The notes below the pieces were generated by a model. The model was not told the origin of the DNA, did no database searches, and worked only from the letters and a program-made list of their open reading frames with translations. 64,000 nucleotides of DNA. Origin: an uncultured Clostridia bacterium. Lineage in GTDB: Bacteria > Bacillota > Clostridia > Tissierellales > Dethiosulfatibacteraceae. Below, piece after piece: positions 41,098-44,821 of this stretch (position 1 is the stretch's first letter; each line of letters opens with the position of its first letter). A program made the translations under genes and the position numbers. The DNA is taken from positions 2,079 through 66,078 of the forward strand of contig CAKMKB010000144.1 in the NCBI GenBank assembly GCA_927435965.1, written 5' to 3'.

Positions 41098-41259
41098 GAT
41101 TTGAATCCCCAGTCTTTAAGATATTTTAAATTAAATAACGAACACTACTTATTGTACTATACATTAAAAGAAAAGTGAAGAATGTCTATTTCATAATGAA
41201 CAATTCGAGAGGATAAAAGAAAAAATATTATTACTTGACAAATTTATCGATATAATATA

Positions 41260-41281
41260 ACATACGTTATATAACGTATGT
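41260..41281. promoter_or_regulatory. 22-bp perfect palindrome, probable TetR operator
   Basis: ACATACGTTAT|ATAACGTATGT lies 18 nt upstream of the tetR ATG, immediately downstream of TTGACA (41235-41240). Confidence 0.65.
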
Positions 41282-41298
41282 AATTCAAGGAGGATAGT

Positions 41299-41877
41299 AT
41301 GACACCAAAAACAAAATTCAGCAAGGAAGAAATTATACAAGCAGCATTCTTGATTGCCAAATCAGAAGGCTTTTCAGGAATAACAGCCAGAAGTGTTGCT
41401 AAAAGACTGGGTTGCTCAGTCGCACCTATATATGTCAATTTTACAAATATAGATGAGTTGGTAGTATCAGTAGTTAAACGTGTTTTTGACATATCCCAAG
41501 AGCTGATAGGCAAACAATCTGGGAACGATGTGATGGAAAGCATAGGAAAAGCCAGTATTGAATTCGCAAAATCATACCCGATTTTTTTTCGGGAACTGAT
41601 TATGACGCCCAATCCATACATGGATTCTTATGATGCTGTTGAAGAATCAATTCTAAATGCTATGGCAGAAGATAAAGACATGAAAAATTGGACTTATATT
41701 GAGAGAAGAAAGTTGCTATTGAAGTTGAGAATATTTCAAACAGGTCTTTCAGTTATGATTGCAAATGGAAATATGCCGTCTTGGATTGAAGAGGAAAAAT
41801 TTGAAGAATTATTGATGGAAACAGGAGAAGAATTGTTTCAAATACAAAAATCAAAAAGGAGTGTAACAAATGACTAA
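41299..41877 (+). CDS. TetR/AcrR family transcriptional regulator
   Basis: N-terminal HTH FSKEEIIQAAFLIAKSEGFSGITARSVAKRLGCSVAPIYVNF; RBS AAGGAGG. Confidence 0.85.
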   Translation: MTPKTKFSKEEIIQAAFLIAKSEGFSGITARSVAKRLGCSVAPIYVNFTNIDELVVSVVKRVFDISQELIGKQSGNDVMESIGKASIEFAKSYPIFFRELIMTPNPYMDSYDAVEESILNAMAEDKDMKNWTYIERRKLLLKLRIFQTGLSVMIANGNMPSWIEEEKFEELLMETGEELFQIQKSKRSVTND

Positions 41878-43363
41878 GAAATTAGTAATTATTGGTGGTG
41901 GAATAGCTGGATTAAGTGCAGGAATATTTGCTCAAATAAATGGATTTGACAGCGTAATTCTGGAGAAAAACCCTATTCTAGGGGGAGAATGCACCGGTTG
42001 GGATTGCAGAGGATATCATATAGATGGTTGTATTCATTGGTTAGTGGGAACAAAGGAAAACACCCCCATGAACAAATTGTGGAAAACACTGGGAGCGCTT
42101 GATGGAGTGGACGTTTATCATCCGGAAACTTTTTTGACATTTGAACACGAACAAGGAACTGTTCATCTTTATAAAGATCTAGAAAGACTGAAAGAGAGTT
42201 GGATAGAGATGTCACGTGATGACAAAGAAGTGATTGAAGAATTCTGTTCTGATATCAAAAAATTGCATTCCTTTGATATACCGACTGGAAAGCCCATGGA
42301 TCTAATGACGATTGTTGAAAAGATAAAAGCTATGATTTCAATGAAAGAAGCGGGTATGATTGTCAATAAATACGGAAAAATAACACTGAATGAATTTGCA
42401 AACAGGTTTAAACATCCTGCGTTGAGAGATGCATTGGGTACATTTTTACCAGAAGGTTACAATGCCATGCCGATTTTTTTTGCTCTAGCAACCTACACAA
42501 AAGGAGACGCATCTATTCCTGTTGGTGGTTCAAGAACTATGTCAATGAATATGGAAAAGCGTTATGTAGAGTTGGGAGGTGTTGTTGAGACCTTGTGTGA
42601 AGTAAGTGACTTAAAAATAGACGGGAAGATTGTTGGACAGATTGAAACTAAAGACGGACGAAGGTTTTCAGGTGACTATTATTTAGCAGCATGCGATGCC
42701 AGATTTGTATATGAGAATTTATTGAAGGGTAGGTACAATGATACTAAGTATGAGACAAGATTTAATGACCCGGTCAATTATCCACTTGCTTCCAATATCT
42801 ATGTTTCCCTAGGTTATGAAGGCAGTACAGAAGGAATCCCAAGGTCAGTTCGCTTTCCTTTGAAGAAACCCATAACAATAAATGATAAGGAATTAACACA
42901 TCTGATGATGACACATTATAACTATGAGCCAACATTTGCACCTGAAGGAAATACCGTAATTACATGTGCCATCAATCAATTTCATTCTGATGTTGATGCA
43001 TGGATAAAACTTGCAAACAGTACAGATCAGTACAAAAGGGAAAAAGAAAGGATTGGAGATGAAGTCAGACAATCCATAGAATTAAGATATCCTGAAATGG
43101 CAGGGAAAATAGAAGTCCTTGATGTAGCAACACCAATTACATATGAAAAATACTGCAATGCCTATCGAGGTTCTTTTATGGGGTTCCTGCCTACAGTTAA
43201 AGGCAAGTCTCTAAATCACACTGGAGGGATTAAGGGATTAGATAATTTGTATCTTACAGGTCAGTGGCTTCAACCACCTGGAGGATTACCCACCGCAGCG
43301 ATAACTGGCAAAGACACTATTATGAGAATCTGTTGGAAAGAAAAACAGAACTTCAGATATTAA
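41870..43363 (+). CDS. FAD/NAD(P)-dependent oxidoreductase (phytoene desaturase/CrtI-like)
   Basis: Rossmann motif VIIGGGIAGLSAG, EKNPILGG; overlaps the tetR stop by 8 nt. Confidence 0.8.
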   Translation: MTKKLVIIGGGIAGLSAGIFAQINGFDSVILEKNPILGGECTGWDCRGYHIDGCIHWLVGTKENTPMNKLWKTLGALDGVDVYHPETFLTFEHEQGTVHLYKDLERLKESWIEMSRDDKEVIEEFCSDIKKLHSFDIPTGKPMDLMTIVEKIKAMISMKEAGMIVNKYGKITLNEFANRFKHPALRDALGTFLPEGYNAMPIFFALATYTKGDASIPVGGSRTMSMNMEKRYVELGGVVETLCEVSDLKIDGKIVGQIETKDGRRFSGDYYLAACDARFVYENLLKGRYNDTKYETRFNDPVNYPLASNIYVSLGYEGSTEGIPRSVRFPLKKPITINDKELTHLMMTHYNYEPTFAPEGNTVITCAINQFHSDVDAWIKLANSTDQYKREKERIGDEVRQSIELRYPEMAGKIEVLDVATPITYEKYCNAYRGSFMGFLPTVKGKSLNHTGGIKGLDNLYLTGQWLQPPGGLPTAAITGKDTIMRICWKEKQNFRY

Positions 43364-43371
43364 TCAATTCT

Positions 43372-43426
43372 AAAAATACAAAAAACGAAACTGGCCCTCT
43401 TAGATTTATCTATGAGAACCAGTTTC
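43372..43426 (-). terminator. rho-independent terminator oriented for the minus strand
   Basis: Minus strand reads gaaactgg-tt-ctcatag ataaat ctaagag-gg-ccagtttc, followed by gttttttgtattttt. On the plus strand the hairpin has no U-tract. Confidence 0.7.
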
Positions 43427-43539
43427 TATGTTACTGTGTTCATGCTTTCTCCTTTTTTTTCAGGACCTTGTCCCAAAGAGAAATTTTCGTAATACTCTGT
43501 TTCCAGAATATATACTTCAACAACTATCCTACCAATCAT
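43426..43539 (-). CDS. candidate 37-aa small ORF (MIGRIVVEVYILETEYYENFSLGQGPEKKGESMNTVT)
   Basis: Hand-translated minus-strand ORF below the track cutoff. Its stop codon abuts the terminator stem. The SD is weak (ttgaaag), and an internal AAGGAG-N5-ATG lies 5 codons before the stop. Confidence 0.25.
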   Translation of the reverse strand: MIGRIVVEVYILETEYYENFSLGQGPEKKGESMNTVT

Positions 43540-43591
43540 CTTTCAATAATACAACTAAGGTTTTATTAATTTTACTTCTTTCTTGGAACGT

Positions 43592-43883
43592 GTTCAACAA
43601 ACTAAAATCTTTTTTCTAAAAACCGTTTAACAAACTAAAATCTTTTTTCTAAAAACCGTTCGACAAACTAAAATCTTTTTCTTAAAACCGTTCAACAAAC
43701 TAAAATCTTTCTTCTTGAAACTTGTTCAATAAATCAAACTTTCTTTCATAAAACTTGTTCTAAAAACTAAACTTCTTTTCGTAAAACCTAATCTAAAAAA
43801 TAAACTTCTTTTCGTAAAACTTTTTATAAAAACTAAACTTCTTTATAAAACTTGTTCTGGAACTAAAACCTCTTACTACCCTC
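43592..43883. repeat. about nine head-to-tail copies of a 31-34 bp AT-rich unit (consensus GTTCAACAAACTAAAATCTTTTTTCTAAAAACC), with no spacers
   Basis: Units start at 43592, 43625, 43658, 43690, 43724, 43757, 43790, 43823 and 43854. The first four are near-identical and later ones are progressively degenerate. A weaker unit-like stretch precedes at about 43546-43591. Confidence 0.9.
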
Positions 43884-43927
43884 AGTGTATTAATCTGATA
43901 TTTCGATAGAGTATTTGTTGTATTCCT

Positions 43928-43955
43928 ATTATATCACATTTTTTTTCCCGTGCAA
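43928..43955 (-). promoter_or_regulatory. candidate extended -10 sigma-A promoter firing leftward into the repeat array
   Basis: Minus strand reads TTGCAC - 16 nt - TATAAT, with TGa immediately upstream of the -10 (TGnTATAAT). Confidence 0.5.
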
Positions 43956-43988
43956 GCGTTTTCAAAAAAACATACTTATTTTTTTTAT

Positions 43989-44027
43989 ACACAAGAAATG
44001 ATAATGGGTTTATCTTGTGTTTTTTTT
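43989..44027 (+). terminator. terminator-like hairpin upstream of the cbiM promoter
   Basis: acacaaga (43989-43996) / tcttgtgt (44013-44020) plus T7. A TATAAT at 44039-44044 follows. Confidence 0.4.
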
Positions 44028-44089
44028 GGGTTATGATATATAATGTAAACACATTTCAAAATAAATCAAACAGTTAACAGGAGGTTGGC

Positions 44090-44821
44090 ATGAGTCATAT
44101 TCACATACCAGATGGTATTATCCCTTTTTATTTGTGGTTGCCAGGGTACATACTGACTTTTATAATTATATACTTAGTTATCAAAAGAAGCAGTAATGAA
44201 CAAGTCAAGAGGGTTCTGCCCTTTACTGGAATCGCGGCAGCTCTTATGCTGATAGCTATGTCGGTTCCCCTTATTATCATTCCCGTGCATATAAGTCTTG
44301 CTGTACTGACTGGAATTCTTATAGGACCTAAAATGGCTTTTTTGGTCGTGTTTGTCGTATCTATGATATTAGCCATGTTCGGTCATGGAGGGATAACCAT
44401 TGTTGGACTTAATACACTTGTTATTGGTTCAGAAGTTTTCATAGGTGCAATGCTCTTTAAGAGATTAGCAAAAAATAATCTTGTTATCGGAACAAGTGTA
44501 GCAACAGTGATGGCCTTGATAGTCTCTATGAGTATGATGGTGGCTATTATCGGCACCTATGCTGGATTTGCAGAGGTATTGCCTCATGATGCTGTAGAAC
44601 ATGCAGGTGAAGAGCATCTGGATGAAGGAAATCACGACGACTCTGACTTGTCTGAGGTTGTCAGTGAGATTAACTACCTTGCATTTTCAGGCTGGATAGC
44701 ACTAATCATGATAGTAGTTGCAGGTATTGGATTAGAAACCTTGATTACAGTCTTGATTATTCGGTATTTTTATAAGGTTAGACCGGATTTGATTGAAACT
44801 GTACATGGGTTTACTATGTAA
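44090..44821 (+). CDS. cbiM: ECF transporter substrate-specific component, CbiM/NikM family
   Basis: HIPDG N-terminal motif, 7 TM helices, followed by cbiQ and cbiO. Contains a His/Asp/Glu-rich loop HDAVEHAGEEHLDEGNHDDSD. Confidence 0.8.
   Translation: MSHIHIPDGIIPFYLWLPGYILTFIIIYLVIKRSSNEQVKRVLPFTGIAAALMLIAMSVPLIIIPVHISLAVLTGILIGPKMAFLVVFVVSMILAMFGHGGITIVGLNTLVIGSEVFIGAMLFKRLAKNNLVIGTSVATVMALIVSMSMMVAIIGTYAGFAEVLPHDAVEHAGEEHLDEGNHDDSDLSEVVSEINYLAFSGWIALIMIVVAGIGLETLITVLIIRYFYKVRPDLIETVHGFTM

Follow-up and report, generated by a model that had tools for sequence, protein, structure and literature searches.

New large structured RNAs are rarely found in bacteria and each, as with 6S RNA, CsrB and OLE, has opened new biology. 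6S RNA (ssrS) is a stand-alone and very abundant RNA of some 180–200 nt, rod-like and largely double-stranded around one large central bubble, without repeats and transcribed from its own strong promoter. In CsrB, RsmZ and RsmY, near-identical modules are carried on one transcript, with module number varying by species and each unit forming a short hairpin with a GGA loop, an arrangement associated with the idea of multivalent titration. Type III antitoxin RNAs such as ToxI comprise a promoter, tandem direct repeats of ~33–45 nt and an intrinsic terminator, with an endoribonuclease toxin gene directly past the terminator (ToxIN, AbiQ, CptIN, TenpIN). naRNA4, a non-coding RNA with several stems from the intergenic REP325 repeat cluster of E. 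coli, is said to bind HU, its REP units being separate palindromic hairpins. OLE, ROOL, GOLLD and raiA, which are common in anaerobic Firmicutes, are abundant and highly structured RNAs that reach hundreds of nucleotides in length; they have complex multi-stem junction folds and are represented in Rfam. We know of no sequestering RNA in Clostridia.

The RNA gene described here lies on the minus strand of the window (the whole stretch of 64,000 nucleotides that was analysed) between a convergent FAD oxidoreductase gene (41870–43363, plus strand) and cbiM (plus strand, starting at 44090). Its product resembles 6S RNA in being a stand-alone, very abundant transcript with a strong promoter of its own, a rod-like and largely double-stranded predicted form and a supposed role in protein binding, but its ~400-nt rod is followed by a 3′ domain, its loops are all small and periodic, and it matched none of the Rfam 6S models even at E up to 10. 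The use of near-identical modules that vary in number between species is shared with CsrB and the Rsm RNAs, whereas the units here are predicted to pair arm to arm and contain no GGA, the four GGA triplets of the RNA being confined to the 3′ domain. Like naRNA4 it is a non-coding RNA from an intergenic repeat cluster, with an unrelated sequence, one two-arm rod rather than separate hairpins and a conservation that is clade-specific and much higher. In size, structure and abundance it is comparable to OLE, ROOL, GOLLD and raiA, although none of these is built from tandem repeats as a single rod and none of their Rfam models matched it. Rfam gave no match at the gathering threshold over 64 kb. 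A 3.5-kb stretch searched with a cutoff of E = 1 likewise gave nothing, and relaxing the cutoff to E = 10 for 601 nt produced only noise in the form of chance eukaryotic matches with E above 1. No match to the element was found in viral contigs or in phage and plasmid collections, and a literature search yielded no relevant description and no case of a single rod formed from two diverged halves of one tandem array. By these comparisons (Rfam, phages, plasmids and literature) the RNA matches no described family.

Leftward transcription would begin at a sigma-A type promoter with an extended −10 element (43928..43955, minus strand), in which TTGCAC (43955–43950) is separated by 16 nt from TGa-TATAAT (43936–43928). 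The preliminary description had proposed exactly this promoter, and all the elements that it listed were located where it had placed them. Across eight homologues the −35 and −10 boxes and the TG stay unchanged while the spacer varies. It was missing from the scanner output because TTGCAC matches TTGACA at three of six positions only. Upstream of the −35 box an A/T-rich block, TATAAAAAAAATAAGTATGTTTTTTTGAAAACGC (43956..43989, minus strand), is near-invariant in the seven homologues aligned and is a possible UP element. Transcription is predicted to start at an A at 43921, 7 nt past TATAAT, where the contig from X6 ends exactly, with the 5′ ends of the other metatranscriptome contigs lying at 43904–43912. 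Contigs from DNA runs cross the promoter region; those from RNA runs never extend beyond 43921.

The unit ends at an intrinsic terminator (43372..43426, minus strand) composed of a GC-containing 17-bp hairpin (43426–43387) and a U-tract (43386–43372). The hairpin folds on the minus strand with −24.2 kcal/mol (z −4.93, with none of 200 shuffles as good). Past it the minus strand reads GUUUUUUGUAUUUUU and the plus strand UAUGUUACUGUG, and the terminator is therefore one-directional, in keeping with the earlier proposal that it serves leftward transcription only. A simple terminator scanner missed this hairpin because its loop rule allows 3–8 nt. Across homologues the stem is conserved and the loop variable, with a G-to-A change opposite U keeping the pairing. 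The hairpin is missing from every RNA-run contig, its 31-mers being found in DNA runs only. From these signals we infer a primary transcript of ~550 nt, which would run leftward from near 43921 to the terminator at 43426–43387.

Expression was evident in all eight metatranscriptomes, drawn from different studies, that were mapped to the window, in which short contigs covered only ~43425–43921 with a depth of 0 on both flanking genes, contig depth being a poor gauge of expression. Such a discrete, stand-alone and abundant transcript is the pattern known from 6S RNA. The RNA recovered in this way is ~497 nt long in the window genome; Logan contigs carry no direction and the minus strand was assigned from the promoter, terminator and fold. 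These contigs, ending at the predicted start, substantiate the preliminary description of a leftward unit that has a promoter and a terminator of its own and produces a roughly 550-nt RNA with the repeats as its body, the non-coding version of which was the right one. The sequence occurs in ~20 RNA runs, which come from about ten studies. In DNA metagenomes the gap between the flanking genes and the flanks themselves were evenly covered, and the sequence was absent from a DNA run sharing its sample with three RNA-positive runs. Single RNA runs contained several haplotypes, up to ~10% apart, as well as several copy-number forms, and the multiple haplotypes argue against a spike-in.

All close relatives that were fetched, a small group of subsurface, Dethiosulfatibacter-like Clostridia with a CbiM protein at least 81% identical, contained a full-length element; they represent roughly five lineages, one of which was recovered in six independent assemblies. 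The preliminary description had called for a check of conservation in related genomes, and in relatives other than the nearest, L006, the RNA is 89–96% identical as against 78–84% for cbiM, with ~50% of the four-fold sites in cbiM changed in relatives more distant than L006. L006 itself is the exception (RNA 91%, cbiM 93%). No homologue was detected in the fetched stretches of more distant relatives (cbiM 58–59%, GT2 75%). DNA metagenomes, no fewer than five of them (X1, X2, X5, X9 and X14), contain the element with its flanks as single-copy chromosomal DNA, and so do 20 contigs assembled from other samples. The convergent oxidoreductase gene was inserted in particular lineages only: it belongs to a 2.1-kb opposite-strand TetR/oxidoreductase cassette that lies exactly between the RNA gene and the GT2 unit in the window and L006, whereas in six other lineages the GT2/YfhO operon comes directly after the terminator on the same strand. 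No RNA-binding gene adjoins the RNA gene. The apparently empty cbiM/GT2 spacer of 700–800 bp is itself a gene.

Contig searches were less informative. A search of genome contigs with the oxidoreductase found no relative, an exact 20-mer search of genome and metagenome contigs returned chance matches or none (the match in L001 being 22 nt, and L002 sharing the 20-mer as expected by chance) and a search with a two-unit repeat pattern found unrelated repeats only (L003, L004). These negatives are weak because L006 and L010–L014 carry the exact 20-mer yet are absent from the results, the collections being incomplete.

Between the promoter and the small open reading frame at its 3′ end, where the preliminary description had placed a 33-bp repeat array, the gene contains 8.3 tandem copies of a 33-bp unit (43587–43858, 76% matches, core 43592–43786), with the repeat families extending over 43559–43874. 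The units are not equivalent, the array consisting of two complementary sub-arrays predicted to come together as a single long rod. In the 5′ arm (43736..43870, minus strand), type-A 33-nt units (GUUUYAYGAAARGAAGUUUAGUUUUUAGAACAA) would pair in register with type-B units (GAUUUUAGUUUGUUGAACGGUUUUWAGAAAAAR) in the 3′ arm (43568..43708, minus strand) giving four or five near-identical 33-nt modules, each equivalent to three A-form turns and with identical small purine-rich internal loops. The apex hairpin UUGAA-CAAGU-UUCAA (43715..43729, minus strand) is the minimum-energy apex in the window and in the five relatives folding as one rod. At its base the rod would be closed by a stem between the unique 5′ end (43880..43920, minus strand, RNA nt 2–42) and a unique 3′ segment (43518..43560, minus strand), comprising 33 bp in two helices with 96–100% of cells paired in eight homologues. 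The rod is predicted to span RNA nt 2–404 as an imperfect helix of ~145 bp in which A-U and G.U pairs abound.

The fold of the whole RNA is predicted at −138 kcal/mol (z −7.0). In seven homologues z ranges from −5.7 to −9.1 on the minus strand and only from −0.5 to −2.6 on the plus strand. The fold rests on G.U pairs and is therefore confined to one strand; as modelled, it is conserved and strand-specific. A transcript of the plus strand, for which there is no promoter and which would fold weakly, was rejected. For the window and four of the five relatives tested, folding to minimum energy gives this single rod, with balanced arms of 129/130, 96/96, 131/129, 129/129, 96/96 and 128/126 nt. L006 has unbalanced arms and forms no single rod, which may be due to misassembly, this genome being a short-read MAG. 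The hairpin between type-A and type-B units is favoured over A.A or B.B pairing by 10–25 kcal/mol in five of six homologues and by 5–12 kcal/mol in L015. Overall, 98.2% of 1354 pair cells are paired compared with 44–59% when the partners are slid. Covariation is weak: the eight sequences show 33 one-sided changes (G.U/A-U type) and one double compensatory pair, and a column-shuffle control did not tell the structure apart from chance, given so small a set of close relatives. A 1-nt deletion on the 3′ side of the closing stem in L010, L012 and L014, which also removes the start of the 37-codon ORF, is accompanied by a G-to-A change on the opposing 5′ strand. As a general property, a tandem repeat that alternates U-runs and purine-runs will fold on itself to some degree automatically.

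Past the rod the RNA would form an 8-bp hairpin with a GAAA tetraloop (43492..43511, minus strand), a stem burying an AAGGAG and an invariant single-stranded tail. The tetraloop hairpin contains the sole double compensatory change (A-U to G-C, in L017) and three one-sided changes that preserve pairing. In the following stem, UUUCUCUUU/AAGGAGAAA (43446..43483, minus strand), which is predicted to sequester the Shine-Dalgarno-like AAGGAG, the outer 9 bp are invariant; the GGAC/GUCC hairpin that it encloses varies in its loop, shows G.U/G-C and C-G/U.G changes and is weakened in L017. Within the tail lies the mini-ORF AUG AAC ACA GUA ACA UAG (MNTVT; 43426..43443, minus strand). Both details noted earlier at this end hold, with AAGGAG-N5-ATG present and followed by four codons and TAG (43454–43426) and with the UAG overlapping the first base of the terminator stem. 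The mini-ORF is invariant at every base in eight homologues and coding and RNA-level constraint are therefore indistinguishable within it.

The boundaries of the gene are established, as are the expression, conservation and non-coding nature of the RNA. With somewhat better than even confidence we regard the locus as a stand-alone gene for a very abundant, repeat-built, rod-like non-coding RNA that probably acts as a multivalent platform for protein. The repeated modules would bind several copies of one RNA-binding protein leading to scaffolding or titration, following the platform logic of CsrB/RsmZ or 6S RNA. The sponge-like role raised in the preliminary description is likewise hypothetical. 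More tentatively, and at rather less than an even chance, the RNA may represent a new class of bacterial ribonucleoprotein RNA in which a rod of ~40 nm is made from two co-evolving complementary arrays, the modules align copies of a protein on one face of the helix, units are gained and lost in matched fashion on each arm, and the transcript is among the most abundant in its clade, the clade being cosmopolitan subsurface and sediment Clostridia. The architecture is one in which the number of modules is variable yet balanced between the arms. If correct, this would provide an example of a minisatellite evolving into a functional RNA, a marker transcript by which Dethiosulfatibacter-like anaerobes could be recognised in data from groundwater, sediment, sludge and oil fields, and a pointer to a protein partner in Clostridia.

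Other explanations of the locus have been weighed against this protein platform. That the RNA acts by base-pairing or after processing, with the rod as a stabilising or precursor body yielding small RNAs through RNase III or with the tail GCAUGAACACAGUAACAUAG serving as an mRNA seed, is unlikely. In its favour, the tail is invariant from AAGGAG to the terminator in eight homologues, is the only single-stranded stretch containing C in the predicted fold and is followed by a terminator hairpin that the 3′ end in the RNA data precedes, suggesting processing. Long imperfect duplexes are classic substrates of RNase III; frequent internal loops, however, typically block its cleavage and the rod has one every 4–10 bp, while the RNA-run contigs are full-length through the whole rod, indicating that the intact form is abundant. 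A cis-acting leader or attenuator of the GT2 and GtrA-YfhO cell-wall glycosylation operon is a less probable reading again, in which a ribosome loading at AAGGAG would halt at the UAG and melt the terminator to allow read-through, with the rod gating access to AAGGAG. The GT2/YfhO genes follow the terminator within ~100–130 nt on the same strand in L008, L010–L015, L017 and L025–L030, the overlap of the mini-ORF stop with the terminator stem is an invariant arrangement and the AAGGAG is predicted to lie in a 9-bp stem, all of which would suit attenuation. Nevertheless, a promoter (TTCACT-17-TACAAT) that is invariant in all relatives and the window stands beyond the terminator ahead of GT2, the inserted cassette has split the two units in the window and L006 with the RNA still intact (91% between them), no RNA-run contig enters or passes the terminator and GT2/YfhO operons of greater divergence (75% identity) lack a leader of this kind. 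Pairing between the tail and the GT2 leader, judged by eye, amounts to ~8 bp and is not significant.

An mRNA for a micro-protein, either of 37 amino acids or the five-residue MNTVT, is very improbable. The 37-codon ORF proposed in the preliminary description (43426..43539, minus strand) does exist but it is not a gene, as it has no Shine-Dalgarno box and is not conserved as coding sequence: 1-nt indels break its frame in four relatives (L006, L008, L015 and L017) and the other three (L010, L012 and L014) have lost its start, such that it fails in seven of seven relatives and was rejected. While MNTVT is invariant and preceded by a near-consensus AAGGAG-N5-AUG, its synonymous positions and the adjacent non-coding tail are equally invariant, which fits constraint on the RNA, and the AAGGAG box is predicted to be paired. 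The small ORF that gene callers place in the cbiM/GT2 spacer, 39 aa long in several relatives, is spurious. Still less credence can be given to an antitoxin RNA of the ToxI type, from which units would be excised to neutralise an endoribonuclease toxin. The order of promoter, 33-nt direct repeats and intrinsic terminator is that of ToxI, but this reading was rejected for lack of an adjacent toxin gene, the next gene past the terminator being GT2 (PF00535) or, in the window and L006, the convergent oxidoreductase; in addition ~170 nt of conserved, unique and structured sequence separate the repeats from the terminator, mutual pairing of the repeats is predicted, and what the RNA runs yield is an intact, full-length molecule. 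Just as hard to credit is a feature of the DNA or an artefact, whether an ordinary intergenic minisatellite or array of protein-binding sites that lies ahead of cbiM and is transcribed incidentally, or else a reagent contaminant or spike-in of the RNA libraries. The AT-rich 33-bp repeats do vary in copy number, the sequence occurs in RNA libraries from very different and often low-biomass habitats and one run labelled as a single organism contains nothing but this stretch. Against this, the RNA is still 89–96% identical where about half of the cbiM four-fold sites have changed, the G.U-dependent fold is found on one strand only, and the natural haplotypes and copy-number forms in RNA runs together with the chromosomal context in DNA metagenomes and assembled contigs rule against a spike-in or contaminant. 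A CRISPR array was also rejected, the units running head-to-tail with a period of 33 and without spacers.

The gap between an FAD-dependent oxidoreductase gene (41870-43363, plus strand, convergent on the gap) and the plus-strand cbiM-cbiQ-cbiO operon (from 44090) spans 43364-44089 and carries a stand-alone, strongly expressed and strongly conserved non-coding RNA gene on the minus strand, with a primary transcript of about 550 nt and a conserved, strand-specific, rod-like predicted fold; this description as a whole is held with high confidence. The preliminary description had placed a 33-bp repeat array, an extended -10 promoter and a hairpin with a minus-strand-only U-tract here, and all are present. 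The promoter reads TTGCAC-16 nt-TGa-TATAAT (43955-43928, minus strand), and the 17-bp terminator hairpin (43426-43387, minus strand; predicted -24.2 kcal/mol, z -4.93, equalled by none of 200 shuffles) is followed by GUUUUUUGUAUUUUU, with no U-tract after it on the plus strand. Neither element was reported by a rule-based scanner demanding at least four of six matches in the -35 box and a hairpin loop of 3-8 nt; since these rules miss both, they were assessed by conservation. Across the aligned homologues the -35 box, TG and -10 box do not vary and the promoter spacer does, with the terminator stem kept, its loop variable and a G-to-A change opposite U preserving the pair. By Tandem Repeats Finder the array extends over 43587-43858 with 8.3 copies and 76% matches, the units being cleaner within a core at 43592-43786; a separate repeat search traced units over 43559-43874. 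On the plus strand, CACAAGA-16 nt-TCTTGTG followed by T8 (43990-44027) lies immediately before the cbiM promoter and resembles a terminator or attenuator; its 3' arm is not kept in the relatives' loci L010, L012 and L014.

By 31-mer index search the stretch is present in about 20 metatranscriptome runs, which come from some ten studies and cover sludge, groundwater, freshwater and marine sediment, microbial mat, soil and ice. In all eight metatranscriptomes aligned, the fitting contigs were confined to 43425-43921 and the oxidoreductase gene and cbiM had a depth of 0, contig depth being a rough measure of expression only. Four RNA runs gave near full-length coverage (43437-43912, 43434-43904, 43436-43911 and 43452-43921), the last consisting of two overlapping contigs in run X6 whose end coincides with the A 7 nt after TATAAT, and library adapter lay directly at both ends of one RNA-run contig. 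No RNA-run contig crossed 43921, whereas DNA runs have such contigs (e.g., 43783-43974 and 43792-44234). DNA metagenomes showed equal depth over gap and flanks, matching the expectation for single-copy chromosomal DNA, and a DNA run sharing its sample with three RNA-positive runs contained no matching sequence at all, so that the RNA can be picked up in samples with too little of the organism's DNA for assembly. The discrete leftward transcription unit first read from the sequence is borne out by the limits of these contigs and their end at the predicted start, with the direction taken from promoter, terminator and fold as assembled contigs carry no strand. A synthetic spike-in is excluded, since single RNA runs contain several haplotypes that diverge by up to about 10% and have different numbers of units.

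No RNA contig entered the terminator hairpin, and hairpin 31-mers (only three words sampled) turned up in nine DNA runs but in none of the RNA runs. This would fit either a mature RNA cleaved immediately before the hairpin or a hairpin so stable that random-primed cDNA synthesis fails to copy it. At 43790, 43791, 43800 and 43826 the window differs from every run aligned, including DNA runs X1 and X2, which otherwise show no difference over 5 kb; these bases may stem from faulty assembly or polishing within the repeat, or may be a variant private to the strain. Run X11, which carries the label of one named organism and was presumed to be DNA, contained only the RNA stretch 43418-43906 in several low-depth variants with no flank sequence, and may really be cDNA or reflect cross-sample carry-over of an abundant RNA. 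In run X20 two contigs match the RNA in part and switch to unrelated sequence at 43444 and 43884; they may be chimeric, or may derive from a more distant homologue whose unique 5' and 3' parts differ.

Protein searches yielded no oxidoreductase relatives above 66% identity, CbiM relatives at 81-93% (named 'Dethiosulfatibacter sp.' and 'Eubacteriales bacterium') and GT2 relatives at 88-97%, including 'Clostridiales bacterium 38_11', and their loci were retrieved by exact-protein look-up. Every locus with CbiM of at least 81% identity that reached far enough upstream has a 690-820-bp gap with a full-length homologue of the 584-nt region, representing roughly five lineages (the window with L006; L008; L010-L014; L015; L017 with L025-L030), the last recovered at an identical length of 539 nt from six independent assemblies. 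Where CbiM is 58-59% or GT2 75% identical, the stretches fetched contain no homologue. Relative to the window the RNA is 89-96% identical, compared with 78-84% for cbiM (93% in L006) and 76-84% for cbiQ (91% in L006), with 41-54% of four-fold degenerate sites changed (20-24% in L006); only in the nearest relative, L006, does the RNA (91%) fail to exceed cbiM in conservation. Conservation of the RNA is far above neutral; the alignment comprises eight distinct, close sequences. Scans of public genome and metagenome contig collections were incomplete: JGI contigs L010-L014 and NCBI MAG contig L006 carry the scanned exact 20-mer yet were missed, so that a negative there does not mean absence.

Folding of the 550-nt RNA predicts -138.2 kcal/mol (z -7.0), and seven homologues give z -5.7 to -9.1 on the minus strand versus -0.5 to -2.6 on the plus strand, the fold being strand-specific because about 30 of roughly 145 rod pairs are G.U. 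In the minimum-energy fold a closing stem of about 33 bp joins the unique 5' end (nt 2-42) to another unique segment (nt 362-404), the 5' and 3' halves of the array pair in register, and the apex is a UUGAA-CAAGU-UUCAA hairpin (43729-43715, minus strand). The two halves are distinct sub-families, with units GUUUYAYGAAARGAAGUUUAGUUUUUAGAACAA (5' arm) and GAUUUUAGUUUGUUGAACGGUUUUWAGAAAAAR (3' arm), and every unit pair has the same make-up of four short helices, with one 1x1 mismatch and two 2x2 purine loops between them. In the window, pairing of 5' arm with 3' arm (-61.4 kcal/mol) is favoured over the self-paired arms (-39.8 and -50.8), and the same order in all six homologues tested suggests that the arms are co-adapted. 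Five-module arms are balanced (129/130, 131/129, 129/129 and 128/126 nt), and L008 and L015 lack one unit from each arm (96/96 nt). L006 has unbalanced arms and a side branch, possibly through repeat misassembly in this short-read MAG. Standard pairs fill 98.2% of 1354 pair cells in the eight-sequence alignment versus 44-59% after shifting the partners by 1-3 columns. Pairing is preserved by 33 one-sided changes and by only one double compensatory change (A-U to G-C, in a GAAA-tetraloop hairpin), the shuffle control being uninformative at the shallow depth of this alignment. Thermodynamics, strand asymmetry, arm balance and arm co-adaptation thus give the predicted rod good support, short of proof by covariation.

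We tentatively propose that the RNA scaffolds or titrates one RNA-binding protein, following the logic of CsrB/RsmZ and 6S RNA: four to five identical 33-nt modules, each of three A-form turns, would show the same face and form a multivalent platform. On the defining features tested, the RNA itself does not qualify as a 6S RNA, CsrB-type RNA, type III antitoxin or CRISPR array. Against Rfam 15 the whole window had no match at the gathering threshold, a 3.5-kb stretch had none at E up to 1, and at E up to 10 only chance eukaryotic matches appeared; searches of phage, plasmid and viral collections found no match and a literature search nothing relevant. A type III antitoxin is very improbable, as is a DNA-level repeat or contaminant. 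A micro-ORF mRNA is just as improbable. The 37-codon ORF (43539-43426) and AAGGAG-N5-AUG-4 codons-UAG (43454-43426) exist as first described, but the former is ruled out as a micro-protein gene by one-base indels just after the AUG (L010, L012, L014), inside the ORF (L006) or in an A-run (L006, L008, L015, L017) that shift the frame or remove the start. Gene callers report a 39-aa minus-strand ORF with a different start in the 3' domain of several relatives (L010 3088-3207, L012 3333-3452 and equivalents), its frame not conserved and probably a false call. No base of the five-codon mini-ORF varies, and since the surrounding tail is equally invariant, coding and RNA-level constraint are inseparable; its AAGGAG box lies inside an invariant 9-bp stem of the predicted fold. 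This invariance would also suit a processed or base-pairing RNA acting through the tail, an unlikely reading. The A-run before AAGGAG (43445-43452) has 5-9 A among relatives and also differs in length inside RNA and DNA runs (+T, +TT, -1), either as a slippage-prone homopolymer or through sequencing noise.

The GT2 and GtrA-YfhO cell-wall glycosylation operon begins on the same strand about 100-130 nt beyond the terminator in six lineages, an arrangement that raised the idea of a leader acting as a translation-coupled attenuator for GT2/YfhO. This is somewhat less likely still than action through the tail, as the stretch before GT2 has an invariant promoter of its own, TTCACT-17-TACAAT, still directly before GT2 in the window (41098-41190), and the RNA is well conserved in the window and L006 despite insertion of a TetR and oxidoreductase pair, which thus lies exactly between the U-tract of the RNA and the GT2 promoter. 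The RNA is taken to be independent of its neighbouring genes. The inserted cassette, of about 2.1 kb, occurs only in the window (41190-43371) and L006 (1242-3306), and is missing from L008, L010-L015, L017 and L025-L030.
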